Shown here one piece after another: positions 1 to 32,142 of a DNA stretch of 64,000 nucleotides (its first letter is position 1; every line of letters begins with the position of its first letter). The translations under genes and the position numbers were made by a program. The notes beneath the pieces are model-generated. The model searched no databases and was not told the DNA's origin. It saw only the letters and a program-made list of their open reading frames with translations. The DNA is taken from NCBI GenBank assembly GCA_900542735.1, contig UQOS01000004.1, positions 35 to 64,034 on the forward strand, given 5' to 3'. The DNA is from an uncultured Mycoplasmatota bacterium (GTDB taxonomy: Bacteria; Bacillota_I; Bacilli_A; RF39; UBA660).

Positions 1-97
1 CATAATTAAAAAATGCATAAGTTACTCCTACTGTTATTAATATCAAACTAATAATAGCTATTAATGTAATAATTATTTGTTTCTTCTTACTTTTCAT
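1..97 (-). CDS. Partial (N-terminus only) secreted/membrane-anchored protein. Begins MKSKKKQIIITLIAIISLILITVGVTYAFFNY. Shares the post-hydrophobic motif T/S-Y-A/S-F/I-F/Y-N-Y with the two paralogs at 4746-6026.
   Basis: Reverse-complement start codon at 95-97, preceded by an AGGAG ribosome-binding site. The N-terminus is Lys-rich, followed by a hydrophobic helix. The motif resembles a SipW-cognate signal peptide. The gene runs off the window. Confidence 0.4.
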   Translation of the reverse strand, partial: MKSKKKQIIITLIAIISLILITVGVTYAFFNY

Positions 98-406
98 TTT
101 TTACAACTCCTATTCTTAGTTTCTAAGTATATTACTTAAAAAACATAGAAATAGGAGTTTTAACTAGTAAAATAAAGGCTTTCTACAAATTAAATAAAAG
201 ATATTTTTATACTTTTTTGAAATACAAAATATTAAAAACAACCATATAATAAAAGGACAACAAGCTAAAACTCATTGTCCTTAATTAATATACTTAGTAA
301 CCTATTTTTTATTACATTTCAATTATATAATAATTACCATTTGTAAACAAGTAGTAATTTAAAAAAAAGAACTACCGTTACTGGTAATTCTATTACTACT
401 TTACTA

Positions 407-685
407 TTATTCTTCTGTGCTAGCTGGTTCTTCAGCTTCTTCATAAGCTTTAAGAATAGCTTCTTCAAACATAGAACGAACTTCTGGATTAATTGGGTGA
501 GCAATATCTCTATAATCACCAGTAGGAGTCTTCTTACTAGGCATAGCTATAAATAATCCCTTTTCTCCTTCAATGATTCTAATATCATGAACTGCAAAAC
601 TATCATCTAATAATACAGATGCAATTCCTTTCATTCTAGAACCTTCTTTTTCAATCTTACGTACATTTACAGATGTAATTTTCAT
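407..685 (-). CDS. spoVG: Septation protein SpoVG
   Basis: The 92-aa protein closely matches B. subtilis SpoVG ([11 protein letters not shown]...[20 protein letters not shown]). Confidence 0.85.
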
Positions 686-768
686 GTGTATCCTCCTTCT
701 AAAGTAATTTACTTTACAAATCTATAATATAATATTTTATTTGAAAAAGCAACGATTTTTAATAAAGT

Positions 769-990
769 TTACACTGGTTGTGTTAATACCAATTTTTTAA
801 TTAAAACATCACTATAACTAAATGATTTAATTTGCATAGTATTTTCTAAACGAACAACAAAAATAGAGGGATAAGTATCAACAATAGTAGCTGAAAATTC
901 TTCTATCTGATTTCTGCTACCATTAAAACGAAATTGCATTGTCTGTCCTTTATAAGAACGAATCTTACTCTTTACCTTTTCTATATTCAT
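769..990 (-). CDS. veg: Veg protein (DUF1021). The likely start is the internal Met (MNIEKVK...).
   Basis: Small protein with a Veg-like sequence (TYPSIFVVRL...SYSDVL). It lies in the conserved veg position between yabG and spoVG. Confidence 0.65.
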   Translation of the reverse strand: MNIEKVKSKIRSYKGQTMQFRFNGSRNQIEEFSATIVDTYPSIFVVRLENTMQIKSFSYSDVLIKKLVLTQPV

Positions 991-1769
991 CTTGGATACC
1001 CCACAAACATACAACCCTTTGTAACAACGCCACCCATTCCCTCAGAACCAGACTTAGTTTTTCCAAGTAAATCAATTAAATCTACTGTTTTATTTCTATC
1101 ATATAAAGCTAAATAAGAAGCTATAATAGCTGGATCTAATGCATGAATATTAATTCTTTTAGGACTAGAAGCAAAAGTAGAACCTGCTTTTATTAATTCT
1201 TCATAATTACTTTGACAAGCACCAGCTATAATAATTAATTTATCTTGATTCTTTTCATAATTTCTTGCTACCTTTACAGCATCAATAAAATTAGAAGTAT
1301 TCTTATAATTCATGACATTATCAGTAGAACCTTTTCTCTTATAATAAGCATCATGTCCTGTAATCACCACAATATCAGGACTTAACTTTTCTAAATAAGA
1401 CTTAATTTCTGTCTTAATATCTACTTCTTTTAAGCATAAACCATAAGCCATAATATTTAACTTTTTATAAAAACTCATGCATCTCTTTAAATAATCTTCA
1501 TCACCATCTATATGTAATACTTTACCAGGCAAATAAAAAAACTCACTACGATCTAAATTTAAATCATTCGTAATAGAAGTAGTAATTCTTTCATCATCTA
1601 CTACATCAGTATTATCAACCTTTACTAAATCATTAACATCACTATCTGCATATAATCTTAAGTTAATTCCCTTTAAATAAGCAATATTACCAGTAATCTC
1701 CATAATCACAAAATAAGTATCATTATGATATGAATTTCTAGTAACAATATCACCAACTTGAAAAAGCAT
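987..1769 (-). CDS. yabG: Sporulation-specific protease YabG (peptidase U57)
   Basis: The 260-aa protein sits between ksgA and veg, as in Bacillus. Overall similarity to YabG is recalled from memory. Confidence 0.7.
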   Translation of the reverse strand: MLFQVGDIVTRNSYHNDTYFVIMEITGNIAYLKGINLRLYADSDVNDLVKVDNTDVVDDERITTSITNDLNLDRSEFFYLPGKVLHIDGDEDYLKRCMSFYKKLNIMAYGLCLKEVDIKTEIKSYLEKLSPDIVVITGHDAYYKRKGSTDNVMNYKNTSNFIDAVKVARNYEKNQDKLIIIAGACQSNYEELIKAGSTFASSPKRINIHALDPAIIASYLALYDRNKTVDLIDLLGKTKSGSEGMGGVVTKGCMFVGYPR

Positions 1770-1800
1770 ATTTTCACCCCTATCAATGAAATATATGCTT

Positions 1801-2601
1801 TTATTTAACTAAATTATTACTAATATCTACAAAAACCTCTAGAGGTAGCTCTTCTGCTCTTACACTTAAATCAAAATGATAATTCTTTAAAGTCTGTTCT
1901 ATTTCCTTTAAATCATAACCTTTTAAATTATTTCGTAAAGTCTTACGCTTAAAACGAAAACTATCTCTAATTAAATTAAAAAATAAAGTAGAATCTTTTA
2001 AAGGTAGCAATTTCTTTTTACGAGTAAGAGAAATAATCATACTATCAACATTAGGTTTTGGTACAAAACAATTCTTACTTACCAAAAACTCTTTCTTTAA
2101 ATCAAAATAATAATTTAAAAACACCGTAATAGAACCATATTCTCTACTAGCAGGTTTTGCACAAAAACGATCTGCTACTTCTTTTTGAACCATAACTACG
2201 ATTTTTTCTATTTCTAAATTACTAGTAACTAACTGCGTAATAATAGGTGTCGTAACATAATAAGGTAAATTAGCTATTACATATAAATGTTCATAGTCAT
2301 AATTATTTAAATCTTCTAATACATTACGTTTTAAAAAATCATCATAAATAACAGACACATTCGTATATTCCAATAATGCTTGGTCTAATATATCTTCTAA
2401 AGATTCATCAATTTCATAACATAATACTTGTTTTGCTACTTTAGCTAACTCTTTAGTTAAAGCACCAGCTCCAGGACCTATCTCTATTACTAAAGTATTA
2501 TCTGGTATCTTAGAAACATCAACTATCTTTCTAGGAATAGAGTTATCTCTTAAAAAGTTTTGACCATACTTCTTCTTAAAATTAAAATTTTTTGTATTCA
2601 T
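1801..2601 (-). CDS. rsmA: 16S rRNA (adenine1518/1519-N6)-dimethyltransferase RsmA/KsgA
   Basis: KYGQNFL and IEIGPGAGALT SAM-binding motifs. 266 aa. Confidence 0.85.
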   Translation of the reverse strand: MNTKNFNFKKKYGQNFLRDNSIPRKIVDVSKIPDNTLVIEIGPGAGALTKELAKVAKQVLCYEIDESLEDILDQALLEYTNVSVIYDDFLKRNVLEDLNNYDYEHLYVIANLPYYVTTPIITQLVTSNLEIEKIVVMVQKEVADRFCAKPASREYGSITVFLNYYFDLKKEFLVSKNCFVPKPNVDSMIISLTRKKKLLPLKDSTLFFNLIRDSFRFKRKTLRNNLKGYDLKEIEQTLKNYHFDLSVRAEELPLEVFVDISNNLVK

Positions 2602-2694
2602 AAAGCCTCCACTACTAATAATATAACATAATTATGAATAGAAAAAAATAAATTTTTAGAATCAAGAAAAAAAGAAGCTATAATATAATAGCCT

Positions 2695-3273
2695 CTATTT
2701 GGATTTCTTCTTATCTGGGTCAGAAAATTCTACTACATTGACACCATTATTTTTTCCTTTAATAACTTTCTTTTTCGTATCCGTTTTTGTAACAACCTCC
2801 ACCTTTTTTGGTACAAAGTGGAAATCCTCTAACATTAATAATACATTAGAAACAGATAAAATATATAACATAGCTTTCATAGGTGCGATAACATCAGCAA
2901 AATAATTGAAATTAATATTATAACCTAAACGAATAATAGCTATCATATTTTTATCACAGAAAGTACGATAAACACTGAATAATAACATTAAAAATACCAA
3001 GCAACAAGTAACATTATAAAATAAACAATTATTTACACTCTTTTGTTTAAAAATAATATTAATAGCAAATAGTATAAACAATAAAATAAATGGAATAAAG
3101 TTAAATATTGCATTGATCATATTCTTTTCAAGTCTTTGATACATATTGATAATGATAAAAAAGCTAAATACAAAAGTTACTAATAAAAGTAAAACTTTTA
3201 AATAAGAAAGAATAGTATTTAAAATCTTAATCATGATTACCCTCCACTTCATCTTTATACCAATTAGAAACAT
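2695..3273 (-). CDS. Polytopic membrane protein of unknown function. It is the last gene of the SipW-associated operon. The true start is probably an internal Met.
   Basis: Several long hydrophobic segments. It overlaps the upstream gene by about 45 nt. No family was recognised. Confidence 0.4.
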   Translation of the reverse strand: MFLIGIKMKWRVIMIKILNTILSYLKVLLLLVTFVFSFFIIINMYQRLEKNMINAIFNFIPFILLFILFAINIIFKQKSVNNCLFYNVTCCLVFLMLLFSVYRTFCDKNMIAIIRLGYNINFNYFADVIAPMKAMLYILSVSNVLLMLEDFHFVPKKVEVVTKTDTKKKVIKGKNNGVNVVEFSDPDKKKSK

Positions 3274-3922
3274 ATTCTACAAAGCTAGCAGCTTTATTAT
3301 AAGCACCCATTACTTCATAAAAACCATCTCTAGTATTATCTTTAATAGAACTAGAAGCAATTGAAGTATTAAAGAAATAACTACTATTATTAATTAAATC
3401 TTTTTTAAGATAAGAAGTTTCATCTAATAAAGAGTTAATATAAAGTTGAATCATATCTTTATTATCTAATAAATATCTACTATTAAAAGTATCAGAATTG
3501 ATAGTAGTTAACCAGTATAAGTTATTAACGATACAACCATTTAAAATATCATTTTCATAAGATTCTCTAAGTTTATATACATCAATAATAGTAATTTTAT
3601 CTTTATCTTTCATATTTTGAATCGTTTCATTAGAAAACTTATCACTACAAGTCTTTAAATTATGATAAAAAACTTGCATTTTATTAACTGGAATACTACC
3701 TTGATAAGTATTGGCATTAAATTTAGAAATGTTATCATTTACAGTTTTAATCTTATTTTCAAAACTAGTAACTAATGGTTGAGAATTAAATTCAACATGA
3801 TAATCTTTTCTAAGTTCTAAATAATGATATCCATTAGCAAGTAAATAAAAACTAGTAAAAGCAAAAACTAATCCAATTAAAGTATAATTAATAATCTTTA
3901 AATATTGTTTAAAAAATTCCAT
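3227..3922 (-). CDS. N-terminally membrane-anchored extracellular protein of unknown function. It lies immediately downstream of sipW.
   Basis: 231 aa with a single N-terminal transmembrane helix (YTLIGLVFAFTSFYLLA) and an Asn/Ser-rich ectodomain. There is an 11-bp gap from sipW. Confidence 0.4.
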   Translation of the reverse strand: MEFFKQYLKIINYTLIGLVFAFTSFYLLANGYHYLELRKDYHVEFNSQPLVTSFENKIKTVNDNISKFNANTYQGSIPVNKMQVFYHNLKTCSDKFSNETIQNMKDKDKITIIDVYKLRESYENDILNGCIVNNLYWLTTINSDTFNSRYLLDNKDMIQLYINSLLDETSYLKKDLINNSSYFFNTSIASSSIKDNTRDGFYEVMGAYNKAASFVEYVSNWYKDEVEGNHD

Positions 3923-3933
3923 ACAAAATCCTC

Positions 3934-4641
3934 CTATTTATTCTTTTTATTGTCTTTATTGTTTTCATCAGGTAATTCTTCTTTATCAGATCTAATTACA
4001 GTAACACTATCTGATGATATATCTTTTAATGATGATAGCTTACTATTATTATCTTCCTCATCTTCATCTTTCATTCTAGATGTTTTAATTAATTTTAAAA
4101 TATCACTTCCTATAATAAGTAAACAAGGAATCACAACGATCATTAACCAACCAATTGGTTTCGTCATAATAGTTTGTAAGTACCCAATCATAGGAATTCT
4201 TAAAAAGACTTTACCTATTACTTCATCTGGTGCGATTAAAGCAAAATCAGCTGTATTATTATGGTCCCCCTTCGTTCTATAACCAATAATCTTAGAATTA
4301 TCATTTTGATCATGAACAATATCAACAACACGGTGCGTAATTGGGGTACCAGCTGTTTCTATATCTTTTGATAAGAAAGTAATAATATCATAAGTTTTAA
4401 TATCATCTTCTGTAGCTCTAATAGTTAAAACAGCATCATAAACATTAATACTTGGTATCATACTTTCACTAATAATTACATAAGCCCCAAATAAAGGAGA
4501 ACGATTAATTCCTTTACTAGCAGATAGTTTTTTATCAACAAAAGTAGCTCCAAACATTAAAAACGCTATACCTAAAACTAAAGCAACAGAATAGAATAAT
4601 ACCGAAGACAGAAAATGTAATATTTTTTTTAAAAAATCCAC
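3934..4641 (-). CDS. sipW: Signal peptidase I, SipW type (archaeal/ER-like S26B)
   Basis: N-terminal transmembrane helix. SESMxP catalytic Ser motif (IISESMIPSIN). A second C-terminal transmembrane helix. Size 235 aa. Confidence 0.7.
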   Translation of the reverse strand: MDFLKKILHFLSSVLFYSVALVLGIAFLMFGATFVDKKLSASKGINRSPLFGAYVIISESMIPSINVYDAVLTIRATEDDIKTYDIITFLSKDIETAGTPITHRVVDIVHDQNDNSKIIGYRTKGDHNNTADFALIAPDEVIGKVFLRIPMIGYLQTIMTKPIGWLMIVVIPCLLIIGSDILKLIKTSRMKDEDEEDNNSKLSSLKDISSDSVTVIRSDKEELPDENNKDNKKNK

Positions 4642-4745
4642 CTTATCACCCTATTTCTATTCTTACTATTATTTAAACTAATAATACCACATAAAAAAAT
4701 AGAAGTAAAATAAAAAAAGAAAAACTAAGTCTTTCTTTACAGTAA

Positions 4746-5381
4746 TTAATAAGTACCAGTAGCGGCAACATTTACTTTTAAGGAGAATTTTTTATCATTT
4801 AACACGGTATAATCAAAATTATCAGTGTTAGGATCTTTAACCCACATTCTAAGACGGAATTTTTTACTATAAGCAACTTCTCCAGCTTGTACATTTCCAT
4901 AGTAAATTGTTTTTCCAGTTAAAAGACTATTGGTAGTTGTAGCTAACTGATTATAGGTAGTAACATTACCTGAATTTGCAGTAATTGGAGTTTCTTGTTC
5001 TTGATTTCCTTCAAATGTAGTTAAATATACTTTTACCCAATCATCATCTAAAGTAGAGTTTTCATTTTTCTCAGTCACTATTTCATATGCTAAATTTGTT
5101 TTCGTAGTAGAAGCCGAAACGGTAAAATCAAAGTATTCTCTATTACCAGATAAAACTTTACCTTGACTATCACTAACAGGAATAGCATCTTCTATATAAA
5201 TACCATTACCTCCACCATTAGCATCGGAATAAGAAAAAACAATTCTACCAGTTTGAATTACATTATTCGTAATACCAGCACCAAAATAATTAAATATGGA
5301 ATAACTAATTCCAATAAATAAACAAATTAAAGATAAAAATAAAAGTAAAACTCCAACAATATTAATTTTAGAATTTTTCAT
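4746..5381 (-). CDS. Secreted protein, paralog B of a two-member family. Candidate SipW substrate (TasA/BsaA-like fibre or coat protein).
   Basis: N-terminal hydrophobic helix followed by the GISYSIFNY motif. Clear paralogy with the 5388-6026 product (TGRIVFSYSDANGGGNGIYIEDA versus TGQIVFTYSDVNPGGSGILIEDA; FRLRMWVK versus YRLRMWLK). Confidence 0.5.
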   Translation of the reverse strand: MKNSKINIVGVLLLFLSLICLFIGISYSIFNYFGAGITNNVIQTGRIVFSYSDANGGGNGIYIEDAIPVSDSQGKVLSGNREYFDFTVSASTTKTNLAYEIVTEKNENSTLDDDWVKVYLTTFEGNQEQETPITANSGNVTTYNQLATTTNSLLTGKTIYYGNVQAGEVAYSKKFRLRMWVKDPNTDNFDYTVLNDKKFSLKVNVAATGTY

Positions 5382-5387
5382 AACACA

Positions 5388-6026
5388 CTACCCTTCTACT
5401 TGATAAGCATATACATCTACTTTAATAGAAAACATCTTATCTTCATAATCTTTACTATCTTCTTTTAACCACATTCTTAAACGGTAAGATTCGTTATAGT
5501 TTTTTAACCCCTCATCTAAAGTCTTTTCATATAAAACATAATAATCTTTATTGTTGATAACTTCTTTTTTTAAACTTGAGAAATTAGTAAAAACTTTTTC
5601 TTCTTCATAACTACCCATCATCTGTGTTAGATAAATTTGAATATTTTTATCACTTAAAGTAGATTGTTCATTTTTATTAATTAATAACTTATATAATAGT
5701 TTAGCTTTTTTAGTAGTAGCCGTAATATAAAAATCAAAATACTGATTTTTTCCAACCATCTTTTTTCCTAAAGCATCACTAATTGGAGAAGCATCTTCAA
5801 TTAGAATACCACTTCCTCCAGGATTAACATCAGAATAGGTAAAAACAATTTGACCAGTATCAATTTCATGATTGGTATCATCTCCTGTATAAATGGAATA
5901 AGTAATACCAAATACACAAAAGAATAATAGAATAGCCGCTAAAAATAAGTAAGACCAATAATTCGTTTTTTTCTCTTGGTTTTCTTTTTTAGTTTGATTT
6001 TCTTGATTTTCTTCTTTCATAAACAT
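5388..6026 (-). CDS. Secreted protein, paralog A of the same family
   Basis: Asn/Glu/Lys-rich N-terminal leader, then a transmembrane/signal helix followed by GITYSIYTG. Paralogous to the 4746-5381 product. Confidence 0.5.
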   Translation of the reverse strand: MFMKEENQENQTKKENQEKKTNYWSYLFLAAILLFFCVFGITYSIYTGDDTNHEIDTGQIVFTYSDVNPGGSGILIEDASPISDALGKKMVGKNQYFDFYITATTKKAKLLYKLLINKNEQSTLSDKNIQIYLTQMMGSYEEEKVFTNFSSLKKEVINNKDYYVLYEKTLDEGLKNYNESYRLRMWLKEDSKDYEDKMFSIKVDVYAYQVEG

Positions 6027-6035
6027 TCTTCCTTT

Positions 6036-6644
6036 CTACCAACCCCAGCGTAAGGTTTCATAATGGACTTCTTTTTGTCTACCAATAACATCCATATTAT
6101 CAGTTTCTGATACCAAAAAATCCATAATATTTCCTTTAATAGCGCCACCTCTATCTAAAACAATTGCGATAATAGGTTCTGTTGAAAAGCTAACATTCGT
6201 AATTTGAACAACAGTACCACATGGAATATTACTATCAGCAGCTACAATTCTAATTTTACCGTAAGTGCTATCTTCAAAATAGATATTTCCATTACGAACA
6301 TCTTGTCTTGGTGGACAAGAAACTCTACCACTACATCCTCTACATACTGGATTATAAGCAGTCATTTGCCCCGTAAAAGAAATTGGCGTTGTTGCACCAA
6401 ATTGAGAAGCTTCTAACATATTACTAACTTCTTTTACTTTCAAAGTTTTATTTTTATTATCATATTTCGTAATAATATGAATTGCTTCAATAGACTTAAC
6501 ACCATTAATATTACGAACACTGTTTACCTTATGAGTATTATTAGAAGCAAAAAAATAGACGCATAAAAAACAAGTAATCACCAATAAAAAACGATGAAAC
6601 ATAATTTTATAAAATGGCGTAACTTTCTTTTTCAACTTTAACAC
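6036..6644 (-). CDS. 3D-domain protein (YabE/YuiC-like cell-wall-binding or lytic domain)
   Basis: N-terminal transmembrane helix. C-terminal Cys-rich 3D/DPBB-like region (YNPVCRGCSGRVSCP...IVLDRGGAI). It occupies the yabE position next to tatD. Confidence 0.5.
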   Translation of the reverse strand: MLKLKKKVTPFYKIMFHRFLLVITCFLCVYFFASNNTHKVNSVRNINGVKSIEAIHIITKYDNKNKTLKVKEVSNMLEASQFGATTPISFTGQMTAYNPVCRGCSGRVSCPPRQDVRNGNIYFEDSTYGKIRIVAADSNIPCGTVVQITNVSFSTEPIIAIVLDRGGAIKGNIMDFLVSETDNMDVIGRQKEVHYETLRWGW

Positions 6645-6684
6645 CTACTTTTGACGACTATTATATAAGCTAAATATACCACAC

Positions 6685-7443
6685 TTAAATAGGTAAGTCA
6701 AATGTCCTAATAGCATTTTCTGTCGTTATTTTGGCAACATTTTCTAAAGAAATGTTTTTTATTTCCGCTATTTTTTGAGCAATATAGAAAATATTACTAG
6801 ATTCATTAGTTTTTCCTCTATTAGGTTCAGGAGTTAAATAAGGACTATCTGTTTCTAAAACGATATTAGTAAGTTCCAATTTTTCTATGACTTCAAAAAG
6901 TTTACTGTTTTTAAAAGTTACTACTCCACCAATTCCAAGTAAAAAGCCTAAACTGATAAATTTTTTCGCCATTTCTAAACTACCACTGAAACAGTGAATC
7001 ACGCCAGATACTTTATATTTTTTTAGAATTTCATAGGTTTCATTAATAGAATCGCGACTGTGAATAACGACTGGTAATTTTAATTTTTCAGCTATCTCTA
7101 ATTGCCTACAAAATACTTCTCTTTGTTTATCTTTATTATCTTTATTCCAATAGTAATCAAGTCCAATTTCCCCAATTGCTACAATTTTAGGATTATTTTT
7201 AACCATTTCTTCTAAGATCTCGTAATCTTTTTCCACAATTTTGTTACTAACTTCAGGGTGATAACCAATGCAAGCATATAAATTTTTATATTTTTCCACA
7301 AATTTAGTGGATAACATAATATCATCTTTCTCACAAAAAGAAGCAATTAACACTTCTACTTGGGCATCACTTGCATTTTTAACATATAAATCAGGCTGTA
7401 CCCCAAAATCATCTCCAATATGCATATGTGTATCTATAAACAT
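6685..7443 (-). CDS. tatD: TatD-family DNase (YabD)
   Basis: MFIDTHMH.G motif and a TIM-barrel metal-dependent hydrolase pattern. 252 aa. Confidence 0.8.
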   Translation of the reverse strand: MFIDTHMHIGDDFGVQPDLYVKNASDAQVEVLIASFCEKDDIMLSTKFVEKYKNLYACIGYHPEVSNKIVEKDYEILEEMVKNNPKIVAIGEIGLDYYWNKDNKDKQREVFCRQLEIAEKLKLPVVIHSRDSINETYEILKKYKVSGVIHCFSGSLEMAKKFISLGFLLGIGGVVTFKNSKLFEVIEKLELTNIVLETDSPYLTPEPNRGKTNESSNIFYIAQKIAEIKNISLENVAKITTENAIRTFDLPI

Positions 7444-7461
7444 AAAATCACCTCGTAACTG

Positions 7462-7938
7462 CTAATCAATATTTAACTTGTATAATCTTTGAATTCTAGG
7501 ATATTTACTATAAGTATCAATACTATCAACAAAAACCCAACCATATTTTTCATAAAGGCCACAGTGTTTGGTAAATATATACAACTCCTTTATTCCTAAA
7601 GTCTTAGCATTATTATATACTGTTTCCATCATTAGTTTGCAAATTCCATTACCCCTAAACTTTTCATCAACATAAACATTACATACCCATGGATAAATAT
7701 CAGGTCTAATACTCAGATCATCATAAGAGATTTGATATATGCCAACAATTTTTTCTTCTTTAAACACACCAAAAGTTTGTGGCAATCTATCACTTTGAAA
7801 ACTATGAATCATGTAACATCTTACCTCATCAATAGTATAGCCTTCTTCTTTACCCCACCATTCATACATCCAACCAACAACAGTATCTAATGTTATATTA
7901 TCAACATTCAAAATTTTTCTAACTTCAAATAAATTCAT
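7462..7938 (-). CDS. GNAT-family N-acetyltransferase
   Basis: 158 aa. Acetyl-CoA-binding-like RGNGICKLMME motif. Confidence 0.5.
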   Translation of the reverse strand: MNLFEVRKILNVDNITLDTVVGWMYEWWGKEEGYTIDEVRCYMIHSFQSDRLPQTFGVFKEEKIVGIYQISYDDLSIRPDIYPWVCNVYVDEKFRGNGICKLMMETVYNNAKTLGIKELYIFTKHCGLYEKYGWVFVDSIDTYSKYPRIQRLYKLNID

Positions 7939-8097
7939 ACATTTTCCTCCATCACTATAATCATTGTATCACAAAAAAAGTAGTCATAATAACTACTTTA
8001 TAATAAAACAAAATGAATATTTAGTTTTATACTACTAACATAAATTTCAGTAATATCATAATACATTATCAGTACTATGTTATTAATATTTAAATTT

Positions 8098-9639
8098 TTA
8101 TTTTTTACCTAATTCTGCTAATTTTTTCTCTTTATCGATTCTCATAAATAAAGCTTCTGGATTACCAACTTCATAAGAATTATCACTTAAGTAAGTTAAT
8201 TCATTTCTAGAATTATTAATCTGCGTCTTTATTTTTTCACTTGTATCAGGTAAATATGGACTTAAGAAAATACCACATACACGAATAGCTTCTAATAAGT
8301 TATATAAAACTGTCTCTAATCTATCTTTTTTAATTTCATCTTTTGCTAAAACCCAAGGTTCAGCTTCGTCGATATATTTGTTGCTTCTTCTTAATACATC
8401 AAATATTTCATCAAGTGATGCACCTATTTCTAAATTGTCCATTTTCTTTTCAATTTTACTATCAAGATTTTGAATCATAGAAATTAACTCATTATCATAA
8501 GTGTCTAAAACATTTTTATTACTAACTTTTCCATCAAAATATTTATTAACCATTGAAATAGTGCGATTAACCAAATTACCTAAGACATTAGCTAGATCAC
8601 TATTAATTCTTTCAATTAATAAATCATAAGTTAAACTACCATCTTGTTGATAAGGAATTTCATGAAGTAAATAATAACGAATTGCGTCTACTCCAAACTC
8701 ATTTACTAAATCATCAGCATAAATAACGTTTCCCTTAGACTTACTCATTTTACCATCACCTACTAATAACCATGGGTGACCAAATACTTGTTTTGGAAGT
8801 GGTAAATCAAGACTCATTAAGAAACAAGGCCAATAAATAGTATGAAAACGAATAATATCTTTTCCTATTAAATGTAAGTCAGCAGGCCAATATTTACTAA
8901 ACATTTCACTACTTCCATCTGGATCATAACCAATATTAGTAATATAATTTGTTAGAGCATCAAGCCATACATAAACAACATGTTTAGGATCAAAATCAAC
9001 TGGAATTCCCCAATTAAAAGAAGTACGAGAAACACATAAATCTTGAAGACCTGGCTTGATAAAGTTATTAATCATTTCATTTTTTCTAGACTCTGGTTTA
9101 ATAAAATCAGGGTGTAATTCAATATACTCTATTAATCTATCTTGATACTTAGAAAGCCTAAAAAAGTAAGCTTCTTCACTTTTTGGTTCCACATCACGAC
9201 CACAGTCAGGACACTTTCCATCAACTAATTGACTTTCTGTAAAGAATGATTCACAAGGAGTACAATAAAGACCTTCATATTTACCTAAATAAATATCACC
9301 CTTATCATACATTTTCTTAAATATTTTCTGTACAATTTCTTCATGATGCTTATCAGTAGTTCTTACAAATTTATCATAACTTGTGTTCATAATATCCCAA
9401 ATATTTTTGATTTCAGCGGCAACACCGTCAACAAATTCTTTAGGAGTAATTCCTTTTTCTTCTGCTTTTATCTGAATTTTCTCACCATGTTCATCAGTTC
9501 CAGTTTGAAAATAAACATCAAACCCTTTTAATCTTTTATAACGCGCAATACTATCTGCTAAAACTACCTCATAAGTATTACCAATATGAGGTTTTCCTGA
9601 TGTATAAGCAATAGCTGTTGAAATATAATATTTTTCCAT
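8098..9639 (-). CDS. metG: Methionine--tRNA ligase
   Basis: HIGN (class I HIGH) and KMSKS motifs. The start is placed at MEKYYIST with an upstream AGGAGA. Confidence 0.9.
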   Translation of the reverse strand: MEKYYISTAIAYTSGKPHIGNTYEVVLADSIARYKRLKGFDVYFQTGTDEHGEKIQIKAEEKGITPKEFVDGVAAEIKNIWDIMNTSYDKFVRTTDKHHEEIVQKIFKKMYDKGDIYLGKYEGLYCTPCESFFTESQLVDGKCPDCGRDVEPKSEEAYFFRLSKYQDRLIEYIELHPDFIKPESRKNEMINNFIKPGLQDLCVSRTSFNWGIPVDFDPKHVVYVWLDALTNYITNIGYDPDGSSEMFSKYWPADLHLIGKDIIRFHTIYWPCFLMSLDLPLPKQVFGHPWLLVGDGKMSKSKGNVIYADDLVNEFGVDAIRYYLLHEIPYQQDGSLTYDLLIERINSDLANVLGNLVNRTISMVNKYFDGKVSNKNVLDTYDNELISMIQNLDSKIEKKMDNLEIGASLDEIFDVLRRSNKYIDEAEPWVLAKDEIKKDRLETVLYNLLEAIRVCGIFLSPYLPDTSEKIKTQINNSRNELTYLSDNSYEVGNPEALFMRIDKEKKLAELGKK

Positions 9640-9649
9640 AATATCTCTC

Positions 9650-10129
9650 CTATCTACCTGTAGAACCAATACCACTCGTTCTAACATTATCTATATTTTC
9701 TTCATTATCAACTGTTAAAAATGGAATAAAAATACCTTGACATATTTTATCACCTTTTTTTACTACATAATCTTTATCTCCATGATTTTCAAGTTTAATC
9801 CACATATGACCTTCATTATCAGGATTATTATAATAATCTCTATCAATAACGCCAACTTGATTACATAATCTAACATTATATTTAAATCCTTGACTACTTC
9901 TTACCACAATTAGTAAAACTTCTGATGAATTCATATTAGCCTTAACACCAAGTGGAAATTTTTTTATTTCACCAGGTTTCAAAATAAAATTAAATAAAGA
10001 TTCAAAATCATAACCGGCACTTTCTTTCGTACTTCTTTTAGGAATATTATATGATTCATATAATTTTTTATCATCACTTACATCCTTTTTAAATTGTTCA
10101 AAACTAATTTTTTCAAAATATCTTGCCAT
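9650..10129 (-). CDS. dut: dUTP diphosphatase-like protein (dUTPase/dCTP deaminase superfamily)
   Basis: Motifs SAGYDF, RSS, GVIDRDY and the C-terminal GIGSTGR. ATG at 10127-10129 with a GGAGGT ribosome-binding site. Confidence 0.6.
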   Translation of the reverse strand: MARYFEKISFEQFKKDVSDDKKLYESYNIPKRSTKESAGYDFESLFNFILKPGEIKKFPLGVKANMNSSEVLLIVVRSSQGFKYNVRLCNQVGVIDRDYYNNPDNEGHMWIKLENHGDKDYVVKKGDKICQGIFIPFLTVDNEENIDNVRTSGIGSTGR

Positions 10130-10147
10130 AATTACCTCCAAAAAAAG

Positions 10148-10352
10148 CGACTATTCTTCCATAAGGACGAATAATCGCGGTACCACCTTAATTTATAGCA
10201 TAACACTATACACTTAAACTCTTAACGCGAGTAACGGATAACTATAATTATCAGCTCCAGAACCATTTATTATTGTTCCTCTATATCTACTTTCACCTAA
10301 CTAGACTCTCTAAAATAGATTTCCAATAACTCTTTCCTTCAAAACATTTATG
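10148..10352 (-). ncRNA. T-box riboswitch leader upstream of dut-metG
   Basis: On the minus strand: AATTAAGGTGGTACCGCG (the conserved T-box sequence), immediately followed by a GC-containing hairpin and a U7 terminator. An upstream AGAGAG GA-motif and a candidate AUG specifier (AAAUGGU). A TTGATG-17-TATAAT promoter lies just after the spoVT stop. Confidence 0.5.
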
Positions 10353-10370: not shown

Positions 10371-10916
10371 CTAAACATAATCATCAACTATTTTGACTAA
10401 AATTGAAGCAATTAACCTGACAAGTACCTTATCATCATCAGTAATTTCATCGTTAATCAAGATAACACTACCCAAAGAATCACTATCTACCAAAATAGGT
10501 ACTAAAAAAGAAGGCGTATTATTTGTTTCATCTACCACAATATAAGAATTACTATCATTAAAAACTTCACATCTATTATCAATTTTTTCTTTAATATTGT
10601 TTGAAAGTTCTTTATTAAGAAAATGTTTTTGAAACTCCTTAGAAACCGCAATAATTTTCTCTCTATCAGTAATTAAAATATTCTTTTGATAAATTTTAGC
10701 TACGGAATCCACTAAAATAGTAGCATTTTGGACCATATTATCTAATAAAGAATACTTCTTCAAAATAATACCAACACTATCTACAAAAATTTCTAAACTA
10801 TCTCCCTCATTAATTTTAAAATTTCTTCTAATTTCCTTAGGAATCACAATTCTCCCTAAATCATCAATTCTTCTAACAACACCAGTTGCTTTCATATATA
10901 ACCCTCTTTCTATCAT
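10371..10916 (-). CDS. spoVT: Stage V sporulation protein T (AbrB-type N-domain plus GAF domain)
   Basis: N-terminal GVVRRIDDLGRIVIPKEIRR SpoVT/AbrB swapped-hairpin motif. 181 aa. Confidence 0.75.
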   Translation of the reverse strand: MIERGLYMKATGVVRRIDDLGRIVIPKEIRRNFKINEGDSLEIFVDSVGIILKKYSLLDNMVQNATILVDSVAKIYQKNILITDREKIIAVSKEFQKHFLNKELSNNIKEKIDNRCEVFNDSNSYIVVDETNNTPSFLVPILVDSDSLGSVILINDEITDDDKVLVRLIASILVKIVDDYV

Positions 10917-11605: not shown

Positions 11606-12125
11606 GTTATCAATCCTTTTATACTATAATAATCATAACAGTTTATTGAAATTTAGTCAAATTTCTGTAAAGCAAATAGTAACTAATCAATTTAAATCTT
11701 TTACGATAAATTTTAAGACATTATCTTTATTATATTAATACAATTATTATTATCTACTCATCAACTTCGTATTTATTTTTTATATCTAAAACCTAATCCT
11801 GTTAATTTTTTAATATGATTTTTAAATAAAATCACACTTTTGCTAATAATATTAAATATAAAATCACATTTCTGTTTAGTTTTTATAAAAAATTATCACG
11901 TTTTTGCATAATACAACAAAATAATAATGAAAAATTGCAAAAAAAGAACCCAAGTATAATTTTTCAATTATATCAAAAAATTTCAATAAGAATTACCATT
12001 TATTATTATCGTATAAAGCCAATAATTAATAACATACATTATTTTATAAATTTATGTAATATTTTAATAGGATTCTTTACGAACAAGAAAAAAATTGATA
12101 TAGTAAAAGCAGTTTGGTGATAGTT

Positions 12126-13607
12126 ATGAAAAAAAGAAAAATATTATTTTTAATAGGAATTGCCTTTATTTTCTTAGTAATAGGAACAAAATCATCTCCA
12201 TTATATAAAATAAATGACTGGTATGATGCTGAATGTTTCTTCACAATGGGAAAATCAATGATGATCGGTAAAGTTCCTTACTTAGACTTATTTGAACAAA
12301 AAGGTCCATTATTATTCCTAATCTATGGAATTGCTTCCATTATTTCTACAAATAGTTTTATAGGAGTCTTTATCTTAGAAGTAATTTCCTATACGATTTT
12401 CTTATACTATATTGATAAAATTATTACCTTATATATAGATGAAAAATATAGTTATATACTACTACCAATTTTATCATTACTAATCCTATCTTCTAGAAGT
12501 TTCACACACGGTGGTAGCTGTGAAGAATTTTGTTTTCCAATCCTAGCAATTACCCTATACCATTTTCTAAATTATTTAAAAAATGATAGCATTTCTAATC
12601 GAAACACTATTCTAATAGGTATTATGTCAGGTTTAATTCTATGGACAAAATACACATTACTAGGATTAAATATAGGATTTTGTATCGTATTACTAATAAA
12701 TGAAATTACTAAAAAAAACTATAAAGAATTACTTACAAAAATTGGCTACTTTTTACTAGGGATCCTAATAACTACTATTCCATGGTTAATTTATTTTGGA
12801 TTACACAAAAATGGAATAAAAAGCTTAATCGATACTTATTTTTTATTTAATATTACTAGCTATGCTGATGATATCAGTATACTTCAAAAACTAATAAACT
12901 GTTTTCATACTGTAAATGGTGTTTTAATAAAATATTATCAATATATAATACTAATTATAATTCCTATGATACTATCCATTAAAACAAAAGTATTCTTTAA
13001 AAATACTAAAAACAATATTTATTTATTACTAGTAACTCTATTATTATTAAACTTATTATTTATTGGTGGAACAAACTTTAGATATTATTCTTTACCAATG
13101 CAACCATTTATGATATTTGGACTAATCTATATCTTTTACCTATTATCACAAACAGAAATAAACAAATTTCTAAAAAAGAACATACTATTAATATCAGTGA
13201 TTACTACTAGTATCTGCTTAATAACTAGCTATTATCGTTCACCAAATACTGAATATTTAAAAAAAGAAAAAAGTTATTATGCACAATATACATTTCTAAA
13301 CTATATAAAACCAAACACAACATTATTAAATTATAACTTTTTAGATGGTGGTTTTTACTTCACTACAAAAACATACCCAACAGAATACTATTTTCAAAAA
13401 AATAATATTAAATACCATCTATTTCCACAAAATATAAATAGCCAAAGAAAATATGTAAAAGAAAAAAGAACTGATTATGTAGTAACTACAAATAAAATTT
13501 CTAAAAAGGATTTAAAAATACTAAATGAAAATTATAAACTAATAGCAAGTCATAAACAAAAGTATGAAGGTCATTTAAAAACTTATTATTTATACGAAAA
13601 AAGATAG
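12126..13607 (+). CDS. Polytopic membrane protein, GT-C-like (ArnT/PMT-type glycosyltransferase candidate)
   Basis: About 490 aa with 10 or more hydrophobic helices and a large hydrophilic C-terminal region. ATG at 12126. It lies on the opposite strand to its neighbours, between mfd and spoVT. Confidence 0.4.
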   Translation: MKKRKILFLIGIAFIFLVIGTKSSPLYKINDWYDAECFFTMGKSMMIGKVPYLDLFEQKGPLLFLIYGIASIISTNSFIGVFILEVISYTIFLYYIDKIITLYIDEKYSYILLPILSLLILSSRSFTHGGSCEEFCFPILAITLYHFLNYLKNDSISNRNTILIGIMSGLILWTKYTLLGLNIGFCIVLLINEITKKNYKELLTKIGYFLLGILITTIPWLIYFGLHKNGIKSLIDTYFLFNITSYADDISILQKLINCFHTVNGVLIKYYQYIILIIIPMILSIKTKVFFKNTKNNIYLLLVTLLLLNLLFIGGTNFRYYSLPMQPFMIFGLIYIFYLLSQTEINKFLKKNILLISVITTSICLITSYYRSPNTEYLKKEKSYYAQYTFLNYIKPNTTLLNYNFLDGGFYFTTKTYPTEYYFQKNNIKYHLFPQNINSQRKYVKEKRTDYVVTTNKISKKDLKILNENYKLIASHKQKYEGHLKTYYLYEKR

Positions 13608-21946: not shown

Positions 21947-23626
21947 TTAATTAATTGATACCATATCTTCACCAAATAACTTAATAGCCTGTGATTTGAT
22001 ATCACCACTATTACTATTTCGTACTGGTAATGTATCTTTATCACTATCCCTATCAATTGTAACATATTGATAAAGAACATGATTATTCATATTTTGAATA
22101 TATTTTTCTTTTTCTTGATTCCACTCATCATCAGTTAATAAAGCAACGTCATAATGTTTCTGATAAATTTTTTCTAATAATTTCTGAATTTTTAAAATCA
22201 TAGAAAATCCCCTATTAATCATGGATTCATAATTAAAAGATAAAATAACTTCTCCCAATCCAACTGCTCTTATCTTACCATCAGATATAAAACAAGCAGC
22301 AGCCCCATATTCACTATCTAATGCATAATCATTTAAGGAATTCCATTTAGATTCAAACATTCTTTTCTCATTTTTATCAGCTCTGGCAAAACAATTATTA
22401 ACAATCATATCATTTATTTTACCATTTTGTACCAAATTATCATCAGAAATTATTTCCCGGGAAATAATTTTACTTTCTAAATGAGAATTATTATCATTAA
22501 TATCTATTTTTTCTGTATTTTTTGTATCTTCACTACTCTTAGGAATAGATATATCACTTTTAGCTTCTATTTTTTCATTATTTTGTATATTAGCATTCTT
22601 ATTCATATAATTTAAAAAATAAATTTCCACAATTGTTTTAATATCAGAGCTAAACTTAATTTCTTTTAATAAATCATTTAAAAGAATAGAAAAAGAAATT
22701 AAAAAATTAGAATCATATTGAGAATCATTATTAATATAATAATTTATTATTAGGTCTTTACACAAATATAATAAGTCTTGAACAAATAAAACAAAATCTT
22801 TTCCATTATCATATATAGAATCAAGAAAATTAATCGTGTTAGAAATATCACTTGCTTGAATATAATTCAAAAACTGAATTTTTTGTTCTTTGGAAACAAT
22901 ACCATTTACTTTTTCAAAATCATCAATAGTAATACTAGAGTTAGAATATGCATTTAATTTATCTAACATACCAACAGCATCTCTAAGTCCACCATCAGAC
23001 AAATTAGCTATCATTTCTAATACATTATCTTCAATCCTAATATTTTCAGCTTCACAAATATATTTTAATCTGTTAACAATATTTACATTACTAATTCTAT
23101 GAAATTCAAAACACTGACATCTTGAAATAATTGTAGTAGGAACCTTATGTAAATCAGTAGTAGCTAAAATAAATATTACATGCTCTGGTGGTTCCTCAAG
23201 TGTTTTTAATAAAGCGTTAAATGCTCCAATAGATAACATATGTACTTCATCAATAATATAAACTTTATATTTTAGTTGATTTGGAACTAAGTTAACCTTA
23301 TTTTTTATTTCACGAATTTCATCTACTCCATTATTAGAAGCAGCATCTATTTCAATAATATCTGGACAAGATCCTTCATTAATAGAAACACAATTTTCAC
23401 ATTTTCCACAGGCATCTCCATCTTCCAAATTTGTACAATTTACAGCTTTAGCTAAAAGTTTAGCAATTGAGGTTTTTCCAATTCCTCTTGGTCCAGAAAA
23501 CATATATGCATGACAAACTTTATTGTTTAATAAAGCGTTTTTCAAAATTTGTATTACTACATTTTGGCCAATTACATCATTCAATGTAGACGGTCTATAT
23601 TTACGATATAAAGCTTGATAGGACAT
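21947..23626 (-). CDS. dnaX: DNA polymerase III subunit tau/gamma
   Basis: GPRGIGKTS Walker A, a Cys4 zinc module and clamp-loader domains. Confidence 0.9.
   Translation of the reverse strand: MSYQALYRKYRPSTLNDVIGQNVVIQILKNALLNNKVCHAYMFSGPRGIGKTSIAKLLAKAVNCTNLEDGDACGKCENCVSINEGSCPDIIEIDAASNNGVDEIREIKNKVNLVPNQLKYKVYIIDEVHMLSIGAFNALLKTLEEPPEHVIFILATTDLHKVPTTIISRCQCFEFHRISNVNIVNRLKYICEAENIRIEDNVLEMIANLSDGGLRDAVGMLDKLNAYSNSSITIDDFEKVNGIVSKEQKIQFLNYIQASDISNTINFLDSIYDNGKDFVLFVQDLLYLCKDLIINYYINNDSQYDSNFLISFSILLNDLLKEIKFSSDIKTIVEIYFLNYMNKNANIQNNEKIEAKSDISIPKSSEDTKNTEKIDINDNNSHLESKIISREIISDDNLVQNGKINDMIVNNCFARADKNEKRMFESKWNSLNDYALDSEYGAAACFISDGKIRAVGLGEVILSFNYESMINRGFSMILKIQKLLEKIYQKHYDVALLTDDEWNQEKEKYIQNMNNHVLYQYVTIDRDSDKDTLPVRNSNSGDIKSQAIKLFGEDMVSIN
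22452..22465. promoter_or_regulatory. Noc-binding-site palindrome inside the dnaX coding sequence (AGAAATTATTTCCCGGGAAATAATTTT)
   Basis: Perfect 14-mer plus extended arms. On the minus strand it encodes ...ISREIIS... in the DnaX linker. Confidence 0.65.
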
Positions 23627-24145: not shown

Positions 24146-24160
24146 CTAACAATAAAAAAA

Positions 24161-24232
24161 GTGCACATAAATATAAAATGTTAAGGCTGCTATCTTCCAA
24201 TCCTGACCTGGTTCCATCAATATTTATTGCAC
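24161..24232 (-). ncRNA. ffs: Small (4.5S-like) signal recognition particle RNA
   Basis: Minus strand: GUGCAAUAAAUAUUGAUGGAACCAGGUCAGGAUUGGAAGAUAGCAGCCUUAACAUUUUAUAUUUAUGUGCAC. It carries the domain-IV hallmark ACCAGGUCAGGA...GAAG.AGCAGCC. The closing stem GUGCAAUAAAUAU/AUAUUUAUGUGCAC is followed by U7. It sits next to tadA/dnaX, as scr does in B. subtilis. Confidence 0.5.
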
Positions 24233-24266
24233 GTATATATAATAATATATTTTTTCAAAAAAAACA

Positions 24267-28394: not shown

Positions 28395-28405
28395 ACTACG
28401 CCTCC

Positions 28406-30343
28406 CTAAATATCAAGATTTTGCACATAACCGGCATTTTCTTCTATAAACTTTCTTCTAGGGTCTACTTCATCACCCATTAATTTTTCGAATATTGCAT
28501 CAGCTGCTAAACAATCATCTACTGTAATCTTTCTTAATACTCTTTTTTCAATATCCATAGTAGTTTCATTTAATTCTTCAGCATCCATTTCCCCTAAACC
28601 TTTCATACGAGCAATTTCAGCTTTAGAACGCACATTCTCAGGAAGTGTGTTAAGATAATCTGCAAGTTCATCATCATTTAATACGTATTTTCTAGTTTTA
28701 CCATGCATAATTCTATAAAGAGGAGGTTGCGCTGCATACACATGACCAGCTTCTACAATTGGCTTAAAAAAGCGATAAAATAAAGTTAAAAGTAAAACTC
28801 TAATATGAGAACCATCAACATCGGCATCAGTCATAATAATAATTTTATCGTATCTAAGTTTAGATAAATCAAAATATTCACCAATACCAGTACCAAAAGC
28901 AGTAATAATCGTTTTAATTTCTTCATTTCCTAGTGCTTTATCAAGTCTTGCTTTTTCAACATTTAATATTTTTCCTCTAAGTGGTAAAATTGCTTGTGTC
29001 ATAGAATCTCTACCCTTTTTAGCAGAACCCCCAGCACTATCTCCTTCGACTATAAATATTTCAGAAACACTAGGATCTTTACTCTTACAGTCAGATAACT
29101 TACCAAAGAAGTTTGTGACAGCTAAATCACTCTTTCTAGTAGCTTCTCTTGCTCTTTTAGCAGCCATTCTAGCATTCCTAGCTAGTAATGCCTTATTAAC
29201 GATAATCTTAGCATCTTCTGGGTTTTCTAATAAAAATCTTTCAAATCCTTCATAGAAAACACTATCAGCTAAACTTCTAACTTCAGAGTTACCAAGTCTT
29301 CCCTTAGTTTGTCCCTCAAATTGAGGATTTGGGTGCTTACAAGAAATAATCATAGTAAGTCCCTCTTTAACATCGTCTTCTTTTAGATTTTCGTCCTTTT
29401 CTTTTAACATATTGTTTTTTCTAGCATAATTATTAATCACTCTTGATAAAGCTCTTTTAACGCCATCTTCATGTGTTCCACCATCATGAGTATTAATATT
29501 ATTCACAAAAGAATAAATATTAGTATTATAAGAAGTATTATATTGCATAGCTACTTCAAAGAATACACCATCTTTTTCACCACTTAAATGAATAATATCT
29601 TGATGAATAGGTGTCTTTTCCTGATTAATGAATCTAACATATTCACTAATACCACCTTCATAAAGGAAAGTTTCCCCAGTAGTATCTTCTAAATCACGAT
29701 CATCCCTGATATTAATAGATAATCCTCTATTTAAGAAAGCTAATTCACGCACTCTTACTTTTAAAGTCTCATAATCATAAATATCTGTATCAAATATTTC
29801 AGGATCTGGTTTAAAAGTAACAGTTGTTCCTGTTCTATCTGGATTACATTCGCCAATTACATGAAGAGATTCAACAGTATGCCCACCATTTTCAAAACGA
29901 ATTTTATGGATTTTACCATTTTTATATACAGTAACTTCTACCCATTTACTAAGAGCATTTACTACACTGGCACCAACTCCGTGAAGTCCACCAGATACTT
30001 TATAACCTCCACCGCCAAATTTTCCACCAGCATGTAAAACCGTATAAACAGTTTCAACTGTAGAAATTCCTGTCTTAGGGTGAATATCAACTGGTATTCC
30101 ACGACCATCATCTTTTACAGTAATTGAATTATCTCTATTAATAACTACTTCAATATTATGACAGTATCCAGCTAATGCTTCATCAATTGCGTTATCCACA
30201 ATCTCCCATACTAAATGATGAAGACCTTTTACATCAGTTGTACCAATATACATACCTGGTCTTTTTCTAACTGCTTCTAGTCCCTCTAAGACTTGAATAT
30301 CCGAAGCATCATAATGATTTGTTACTTTTTCTTCTGTATTCAT
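28406..30343 (-). CDS. gyrB: DNA gyrase subunit B
   Basis: GHKL ATPase motifs ([16 protein letters not shown]), Toprim EGDSAGG and PLRGKILN. Confidence 0.95.
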
Positions 30344-30346
30344 ATA

Positions 30347-31462: not shown

Positions 31463-31566
31463 ATAAAACCCCAAAAAAACTCATATTATCACCTTTTATA
31501 TCTTTTTTGTACTCCTATACCTACATATACATTATACCATAATACAAGGCTAAAAACATAAAAAAA

Positions 31567-32042: not shown

Positions 32043-32142
32043 AATAATCTCCCCCTACAATTTCTAATAAAATTGTGAGGCTTACTATAACAGATAACTA
32101 TGTCGAAAAAAGTAGAAAGAAGGAAAAAATAATAATTTATGA

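Follow-up and report, generated by a model that had tools for sequence, protein, structure and literature searches.

What is a signal peptidase of the SipW class doing between ksgA and tatD in the chromosome of an uncultured gut bacterium, and which proteins does it serve? The question arises from a 64,000-nucleotide stretch of contig UQOS01000004.1 (GenBank assembly GCA_900542735.1, an uncultured Mycoplasmatota bacterium), hereafter the window. Between ksgA and a gene for a 3D-domain protein lie five co-directional genes whose open reading frames (ORFs) and gaps, none above 104 bp, we verified as an earlier reading made from the letters alone (the sequence-only reading) had listed them. This cassette encodes two paralogous proteins (paralogs A and B), the peptidase, a single-pass membrane protein of 231 aa and a polytopic membrane protein of 179 aa; the range delimited earlier, 2695-6644, includes the 3D-domain gene (6036-6644) as well. 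In Bacillus subtilis the corresponding position is presumably occupied by rnmV alone. The sequence-only reading saw here a SipW-dependent fibre, matrix or spore-surface system laid out like tapA-sipW-tasA; its SipW and its TasA-like signal are upheld, its parallel with TapA is not. The answer towards which we lean, with somewhat more belief than doubt, is a SipW-dependent surface-fibre and display system, with adhesin-bearing long family members on or in the fibre and the two membrane proteins at its base.

A SipW-class signal peptidase

The peptidase (3934-4641, minus strand; 235 aa, GTG start) passes TIGR02228, the model for archaeal and endoplasmic reticulum (ER)-type signal peptidase I, with 88.2 bits for a cutoff of 51.85, and obtains only 20.1 bits (cutoff 47) with the LepB-type model TIGR02227. 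The Bacillus SipW equivalog model NF046067 gives it 78.3 bits, below the cutoff of 190. It is a SipW-class (MEROPS S26B) enzyme but, strictly speaking, no ortholog of B. subtilis SipW. The SESMxP motif noticed earlier is present as SESMIP, and the protein aligns to human SEC11A (7p2p; E 1.5e-6) over the SGSMEP, IVHRV and GDNN motifs. S60 (in SESM), H103 (in THR), D126 (in GDHNN) and D132 do not vary among the window protein and 25 orthologs, and the SEC11A residues that they match are those we take to be catalytic. The alignment describes a Ser-His rather than a Ser-Lys enzyme, with conserved Asp residues, and the Ser/His dyad on whose presence the first assignment hung is thus in place. Membrane helices lie near both termini (residues 14-32 and 167-185), and the C-terminal tail is charged.

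A new protein family with a TasA-like cleavage region

Paralogs A (4746-5381, minus strand; 211 aa, a short core member of the family) and B (5388-6026, minus strand; 212 aa) are 40% identical over 200 residues (E 8e-39), where 35-40% had been estimated by eye. In both, a hydrophobic helix leads into the pattern already pointed out, G-I-S-Y-S-I-F in A and G-I-T-Y-S-I-Y in B. The latter may start at its third codon (6020, giving 210 aa), which is better spaced from an AGGAAG ribosome-binding site; orthologs specific to it occur in related loci. Neither paralog matched any Pfam or NCBIfam model, and curated scans of the five cassette proteins and 42 diverse family members recognized the peptidase only. 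A word-indexed search returned 485 relatives of the paralogs, none of them with a name or a Pfam domain, and an exhaustive profile search brought the family to 2,107 clusters at E<=1e-3; paralog B scores E 4e-65 with the hidden Markov model (HMM) of this new family.

Across 337 members, the N-terminus consists of a Lys-rich n-region, a 16-residue hydrophobic core and the motif G (93%)-[IV]-[ST] (97%, position -3)-[YF]-[AS] (98%, -1)-x-[FY] (96%, +2), continued downstream by x-Y-x3-G-x-T-x-N (94%)-x-I-x-T-G (92%)-x-I-x-F-x-Y (98%)-x-[DE]. The motif is the best-conserved part of the family, with 2.87 bits per column versus 2.06 for the body of the domain, and its site follows the -3/-1 rule of small residues, with an aromatic one at +2. 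On the strength of the family alignment and of the hhalign match to TasA described below, paralog A is predicted to carry a SipW-type signal peptide at residues 1-28 (5298-5381, minus strand), cut at S26-Y27-S28↓I29-F30. The same two sources set the register for paralog B, whose predicted signal peptide, with a long charged n-region, would span residues 1-44 (5895-6026, minus strand) and be cut at T42-Y43-S44↓I45-Y46.

How close is this region to that of TasA? An alignment of the TasA family, made from real database proteins, has invariant columns at G24, T25, A27, F29, N30 and D31; the known TasA cleavage site reads G-T-W-A↓A-F-N-D. Compared with this alignment by hhalign, the new family gives one local match, over its N-terminal 61-62 columns, with a probability of 12-34%. 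P is 0.0024 when 42 sequences are set against 21, and 4.4e-4 when 339 are set against 117. The match sets G-v-S-Y-A-f-F opposite G-G-T-W-A-A-F of TasA, N-x-I-x-T-G-x-I-x-F opposite N-s-F-A-a-G-T-L-D-L and I-x-N-A-x-P opposite L-S-N-L-K-P, and places the segment that follows the predicted cut in paralog A on the donor-strand region of TasA (residues 28-46). In TasA, residues 28-38, directly after the SipW site, are the donor strand (PMC9674648). A published study further reports that the TasA site, because of its aromatic P2' residue, is a poor substrate for the general signal peptidase LepB of Escherichia coli (PMC10269814), which would explain the presence of a dedicated peptidase here. As far as sequence comparison goes, the signal and cleavage region is TasA-like, and the paralogs fall outside the TasA family.

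The hydrophobic segment could instead be an uncleaved signal anchor, in which case the paralogs and their relatives would be type II membrane display proteins and the SipW-class enzyme would process other substrates or act as a general signal peptidase. AlphaFold gives residues 4-34 of paralog A as a single continuous helix, and a membrane anchor would account for surface retention without LPXTG; short members in distant loci that lack small -3/-1 residues are probably held in this manner. We nevertheless find this improbable for the family at large, given that small residues at -3 and -1 in 97-98% of the 337 members, together with the G at -5, form the signature of a signal-peptidase site rather than of a simple anchor, that the motif is in register with the experimentally cleaved site of TasA, and that the family genes come with the peptidase gene in tight and unvarying linkage.

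Predicted fold and a candidate donor strand

The AlphaFold model of paralog A (predicted local distance difference test, pLDDT, 78.9) consists of the helix, a low-confidence stretch at residues 32-47 and a beta-sandwich, so that the jellyroll which the sequence-only reading asked about is predicted as a sandwich whose match to the TasA fold is modest. Among solved structures, the best Foldseek match is the TasA fibre (PDB 8aur), and the predicted fold appears compatible with the TasA class. The stretch after the predicted cut, residues 29-53 (5223-5297, minus strand; IFNYFGAGITNNVIQTGRIVFSYSD), is a candidate donor strand: it holds 2.3-2.6 bits per column, compared with 2.06 for the rest of the domain, and has a pLDDT of 41-43 within residues 31-50 of the monomer model. 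The post-cleavage segment is thus highly conserved yet, in the predicted monomer, disordered. N40, D53 and K75 of paralog A are conserved, and one may speculate from the sequence that they form a BsaA-like N-E-K isopeptide triad.

Long family members with adhesin-type domains

Most of the best-matching relatives are larger than the paralogs of the window. Among the best 148 of 2,107 representatives, 97 measure 300-1,781 aa and carry the module at their N-terminus; some of them may end at contig edges, and all lack both an LPXTG signal and a hydrophobic anchor at the C-terminus. In seven of the nine long members scanned, adhesin-type or extracellular binding domains score above the Pfam cutoff, namely cadherin-like repeats, BspA-type leucine-rich repeats (LRR), Laminin_G_3, ALK/LTK glycine-rich and F5/8-type C (discoidin) domains; cluster look-ups provided no names for long members. 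Their genes are dispersed, as the six genomic contexts inspected contain no local sipW, 231-aa or 179-aa gene. In the metagenome-assembled genome (MAG) GCA_947631295.1, the core cassette is found in one locus (L001) and two long members in another (L031), with no sipW near the latter; since both loci share one MAG, one peptidase appears to serve dispersed proteins.

One of the long members, the 1,781-aa protein P0174 with 12 cadherin-like repeats, is encoded directly downstream of T2SSF (pilC-like) and Peptidase_A24 (pilD) genes (region L027:5671-13346). This location raises the idea that a type IV pilus, or a machine akin to type II secretion, takes family members as pilin-like substrates, and the products of the bsa operon of Clostridium perfringens, chiefly BsaC, do need type IV pilus genes for efficient secretion (PMC11580942). 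We give almost no credence to this idea: the proteins have no prepilin leader of the form G↓F/M-x-x-x-E, their conserved motif lies behind the hydrophobic segment and not ahead of it, and pilus genes are near neither the core cassette nor the long members of the other five contexts. With one dispersed locus out of six, a pilus link as a general feature was rejected.

Does the system belong to spores? A spore-surface or spore-coat-associated system, made during sporulation and not on vegetative cells, would suit the proximity of the cassette to yabG, the gene of a sporulation peptidase, and the presence in the window of spoVG (407-685, minus strand) and of a gene for a SpoVT-like regulator with SpoVT_C and MazE/AbrB-type domains (10371-10916, minus strand). 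A Coat_F gene adjoins a long member in L032, and TasA was originally described as spore-coat-associated (PMC9674648). Taken together, the SpoVT-like regulator, YabG, SpoVG and the Coat_F gene suggest that the lineage may form spores. The adjacency of yabG, for its part, carries no functional weight because yabG-ksgA-tatD is an ancestral synteny shared with Bacillus, and cadherin, LRR and lectin domains suggest binding of host or glycans by living cells. We hold a purely sporulation-bound system to be highly doubtful; the matter is one of timing and location, and is compatible with the fibre and display mechanism that we favour.

Two membrane proteins of restricted distribution

The 231-aa protein (3227-3922, minus strand) is lineage-specific, with 130 homolog clusters only, all of ~230 aa. 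Its model (pLDDT 83.7) shows one membrane helix, in agreement with the single-pass topology first assigned, followed by an all-alpha bundle, for which a structural search retrieved only generic helical bundles. Because the domain is an all-alpha bundle, and not a secreted beta-sandwich, the TapA-like accessory role suggested for it by the sequence-only reading has to be abandoned. C92 and C130 are invariant. A loop at residues 177-194 (window 3341-3394; NNSSYFFNTSIASSSIKD) is invariant in close orthologs and modelled with a pLDDT below 50; its core, Y-x-F-[NST]-[ST], persists in distant orthologs and loosely recalls the S-I-F-N-Y-F that follows the cut in the paralogs. That this loop acts as a TapA-like strand donor is pure speculation.

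The polytopic protein announced earlier is present, at a different length: the longest ORF (2695-3273, minus strand) would encode 192 aa, and the ATG at 3234 (MIKIL...), from which 179 aa are read (2695-3234), is the most likely start because ATGATTAA overlaps the stop of the 231-aa gene there. Judging from this overlap, the two genes are translationally coupled. Hydropathy delineates four segments in the 179-aa protein (11-29, 43-61, 70-88 and 115-133) and its tail is Lys-rich, with 10 K/R among the last 34 residues; the curated libraries Pfam and NCBIfam returned no relatives. A role of the two proteins as a membrane base or assembly platform is suggested by their strict linkage to the cassette.

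A core chromosomal locus

The locus was surveyed with one genome per species, which yielded 26 loci from uncultured gut MAGs labelled Bacilli, Tenericutes, Mycoplasmatota or Erysipelotrichaceae. All 26 have family genes between tatD, with or without the 3D-domain gene, and ksgA, as two to five tandem paralogs, with paralog identity falling as low as 32%. The sipW gene is next to them in 25 loci (the exception stops at a contig edge), and the 231-aa and 179-aa genes are found in 24, the latter accompanying the former wherever it occurs. The five-gene cassette therefore recurs at the same position in related genomes, as the sequence-only reading needed it to. The 3D-domain gene is found in 18 of the 26 loci only, which is why we regard it as inherited synteny and not as an obligatory part of the system.

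A mobile-element origin was ruled out. A tblastn search gave no matches in 72,556 plasmids or 50,697 phage records, GC content is uniform across the cassette region (~0.21-0.32), and the syntenic position is fixed. The cassette is a vertically inherited core chromosomal locus and not inserted mobile DNA. It lies on the leading strand, ~29 kb from dnaA, in a window that contains dnaA, dnaN, gyrB and gyrA.

The surroundings of ksgA are also a hotspot for family expansion, four close relatives having one or two extra members. Those of L001, L010 and L011 lie between ksgA and yabG and measure ~211-235 aa and ~430 aa (L001:9602-11840, L010:10191-12371, L011:9386-11580), and a 291-aa one lies just upstream of ksgA in L012 (L012:8484-9359); the window has no extras at ksgA. 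Thirteen distant loci (L013-L023, L025 and L026) contain a further gene, for a protein of ~175 aa, located between sipW and the 231-aa gene in 12 of them (e.g. L018:8844-9389) and between sipW and ksgA in L014. Compared with the family by hhalign (probability 97.6%, E 4e-12), its product proves to be a diverged member that keeps the beta-sandwich, has W-Y-x-F-F-Y after the helix, and lacks the G-x-S-Y-A-x-F motif as well as the donor-like segment. This protein, absent from the window and its clade, is a candidate for a base subunit that stays uncleaved and anchored in the membrane. Two labels in the survey, 'Candidatus Scybalousia sp.' (L009) and Muribaculaceae (L013), are at odds with a ksgA-yabG-veg synteny, which argues that both MAGs are Bacilli, mislabelled or mis-binned. 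In NCBI taxonomy the name Scybalousia leads to a genus of Bacteroidales, the Bacilli genus once so called being now Candidatus Alloscybalousia.

Proposed mechanism

The favoured fibre and display system can be laid out in five steps. First, the paralogs would enter the membrane through a Sec-type signal, made of the Lys-rich n-region and the 16-residue hydrophobic core. Second, SipW would cut within [ST]-[YF]-[AS]↓x-[FY], which means S28↓I29 for paralog A and S44↓I45 for paralog B, as the conservation of the motif suggests. Third, the cut would free a conserved N-terminal segment of ~20 residues that the monomer model leaves unstructured and that, by analogy with TasA and BsaA and in keeping with the predicted fold, could become the donor strand that completes the beta-sandwich next to it in a neighbouring subunit, yielding a cell-surface fibre made of the two short paralogs. 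Fourth, long members encoded elsewhere would be attached to this structure or incorporated in it, turning the fibre into a scaffold for adhesin display. Finally, the 231-aa and 179-aa proteins may constitute the membrane base or assembly platform, which is the least supported part of the scheme. Cleavage, polymerization and anchoring are thus what we infer from the comparisons above.

Several results weigh against this scheme. Once the signal peptides are removed, the hhalign comparison with TasA falls to P 0.09 and a probability of 0.6%, and for this reason we do not call the mature domain a TasA homolog; the sequence-only reading had likewise recognized nothing of TasA past the signal region in these shorter proteins (~170-185 aa when mature). 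A profile search of PDB sequences with the family gave chance-level matches only. The HMM checks suggested at the outset were negative: at E<=1, neither paralog matched PF12389 or NF046066, the TasA/camelysin (Peptidase_M73) models, or the SipW-cognate model TIGR04088, a model so short that HMMER filters may lose weak matches to it. Scanned at E<=10, one of the 42 diverse members touched NF046066 (E 0.008), and PF12389 and TIGR04088 were not among the 25 most-matched families listed for these members. The SipW-cognate-like signal region of the sequence-only reading hence survives as a register with TasA and as a TIGR04088-type pattern (small -3/-1, aromatic P2' and a linked sipW gene), and not as a match to the model itself. 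Moreover, neither the 231-aa nor the 179-aa protein has homologs that are informative, and their genes are both missing from L014.

These results lend themselves to a second explanation, in which SipW processes the family members without any polymerization taking place. The cleaved signal would be followed by a conserved stalk or wall-binding domain, the products would be monomeric and secreted or loosely associated with the wall, and the short paralogs would exist as free proteins of a matrix or lectin-like kind. No sequence homology to TasA is detectable in the mature domain, whose fold match is only modest, and BsaB of C. perfringens, a TasA-like paralog, makes no long oligomers (PMC11580942). 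Against this, a monomer would have no obvious use for a post-cleavage segment that is both conserved and disordered, the long members would have no other retention signal, and two dedicated membrane proteins would be left without a task. Processing without polymerization is, in our opinion, unlikely but to be taken seriously. Divergent TasA/BsaA paralogs encoded in one operon with SipW do form membrane-anchored oligomers elsewhere (PMC11580942).

Starting from the fibre and display system, a more general proposal can be tentatively made, as a possibility that we doubt more than we believe. The 210-residue N-terminal module would be a general tag for SipW-dependent sorting and polymerization, whereby the one SipW-class peptidase of the ksgA locus processes dispersed adhesin-type proteins. 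These would be held by donor-strand insertion into a fibre of short paralogs, itself rooted in the 231-aa/179-aa pair or, in other lineages, in an uncleaved short paralog. The whole would be the main route of adhesin display in reduced-genome gut Bacilli.

Comparison with known systems

The closest known counterpart is tapA-sipW-tasA of B. subtilis (PDB 8aur, PF12389), with which the cassette shares a SipW-class peptidase gene beside its substrates, small -3/-1 residues and an aromatic P2' in register, a subunit predicted to be a beta-sandwich, and a conserved N-terminal segment where TasA has its donor strand (PMC9674648). Unlike TasA, the subunits of the new family are shorter, come as at least two paralogs and have no detectable homology to it in their mature part, and many family members have large C-terminal regions, adhesin-like where scanned. 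Instead of TapA, the cassette provides an all-alpha single-pass protein and a four-helix membrane protein.

The BsaA/TasA superfamily is described as keeping its structure while diverging extremely in sequence, and one SipW operon often encodes several of its paralogs (PMC11580942). The sipW-bsaA-bsaB-bsaC operon of C. perfringens, which we compared through its published description, resembles the cassette in having sipW beside several divergent TasA-like paralogs; the cassette differs in having no BsaC-like von Willebrand factor A (VWA)-domain protein and no adjacent sortase. In archaea, the AbpA/AbpB pili (PDB 7ueg) are built of a jelly-roll subunit, AbpA, polymerizing by means of a donor strand at the N-terminus (PMC9245690). 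AbpA is the second Foldseek match of the paralog A model, a weak one (E 1.5e-3, template modelling (TM) score 0.28). The archaeal operon has no dedicated signal peptidase and includes the TapA-like AbpB, which is absent from the window cassette. Finally, and by analogy only, sortase-mediated display of LPXTG proteins also combines one processing enzyme, dispersed multi-domain adhesin-like proteins and a shared short sorting motif, whereas the tag of the present family is N-terminal and part of a folded module, and a signal peptidase takes the place of the transpeptidase.

It is already known that SipW acts with TasA-like subunits in B. subtilis, B. cereus and C. perfringens, and that archaea make TasA-like donor-strand fibres. 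What is new is a large substrate family that curated models miss, with long C-terminal fusions, adhesin-like where scanned, in most members; the two membrane partners that replace TapA; and the status of a core locus close to the origin in an uncultured gut lineage whose genomes are reduced. The locus suggests a display route that does not involve sortases, in which more than 2,000 clusters missed by current annotation share one module and one linked peptidase. According to a genome survey, the related orders RFN20 and ML615J-28 have no sortases, and a reduced display of surface proteins was deduced for them (PMC10868615). If the organism belongs to one of these orders, the system could substitute for sortase display. 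The hosts of the locus are abundant, uncultured Bacilli with reduced genomes from human and animal guts, and the locus bears on how they attach to their hosts, to food particles and to each other.

If the module polymerizes like TasA, fibres based on donor-strand exchange would have to be counted among the structures of one more bacterial lineage and of a new sequence family, an annotation could be given to more than 2,000 clusters of hypothetical proteins, and reconstitution of the five genes would become a tractable test of substrate choice by SipW-class enzymes. If it does not polymerize, the locus still defines a clean new class of SipW-type substrates.

Gene order and transcription signals

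All genes in positions 1-10,000 of the window are on the minus strand, in the transcription order metG, GNAT gene, tatD, 3D-domain gene, paralog B, paralog A, sipW, 231-aa gene, 179-aa gene, ksgA, yabG, veg and spoVG. Upstream of the cassette, they comprise metG (8098-9687, longest ORF), a GNAT acetyltransferase gene (7462-7938), tatD (6685-7443) and the 3D-domain gene (6036-6644), which encodes a YabE/RlpA-like protein with a hydrophobic segment at its N-terminus (Pfam 3D, 28.9 bits, cutoff 23.8). Downstream lie ksgA (1801-2601) and yabG (987-1769; TIGR02855 above cutoff). The 3D-domain gene, which ends 9 bp ahead of paralog B, probably opens the transcription unit; the subsequent intervals are 6, 104 and 11 bp and one overlap, with 93 bp to ksgA. 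The sole sigma-70-like site with an extended TG upstream of the block is at 6701-6673. Since sigma-70-like sites proved no commoner here than in shuffled sequence, no promoter is claimed.

Eight nucleotides past the stop of paralog A, a stem-loop at 4707-4738 (minus strand; 10-bp stem, 3-nt loop, then UUUUAUUUU as its U-run) lies in an intergenic region with a folding z of -2.1. As a sequence feature it might partly terminate transcription between the structural genes and that of the peptidase; it was missed by a consensus terminator scan because it has too few G-C pairs. That scan found only two terminator-like sites in 2500-7600, one of which is a hairpin with a 9-bp stem and a T-run (2663-2696, minus strand) at the stop of the 179-aa gene, where the cassette ends before ksgA.

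Other features of the window

Upstream of metG, a T-box leader (RF00230, 97.9 bits; 10160-10351, minus strand) is followed by a dUTPase ORF (9650-10141; Pfam E 1e-16) and then by metG itself, whose longest ORF overlaps that of the dUTPase and whose true start is likely MEKYY at ~9639. It is unusual for a T-box-controlled unit to begin with a dUTPase gene. The replication-origin region (25758-36593) has gyrA, gyrB, dnaN and dnaA (33404-34804) on the minus strand, and the coding strand turns plus at ~35 kb, with a YidC/60KD_IMP gene (35658-36593) followed by mnmG. A bacterial small signal recognition particle (SRP) RNA (RF00169, 55.4 bits; 24146-24243, minus strand) adjoins a dnaX-like gene (21947-23626). 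The only large plus-strand gene of the left arm (12114-13607) encodes a PMT_2-family glycosyltransferase resembling dolichyl-phosphate-mannose protein mannosyltransferases (E 5.5e-9), which could glycosylate surface proteins.

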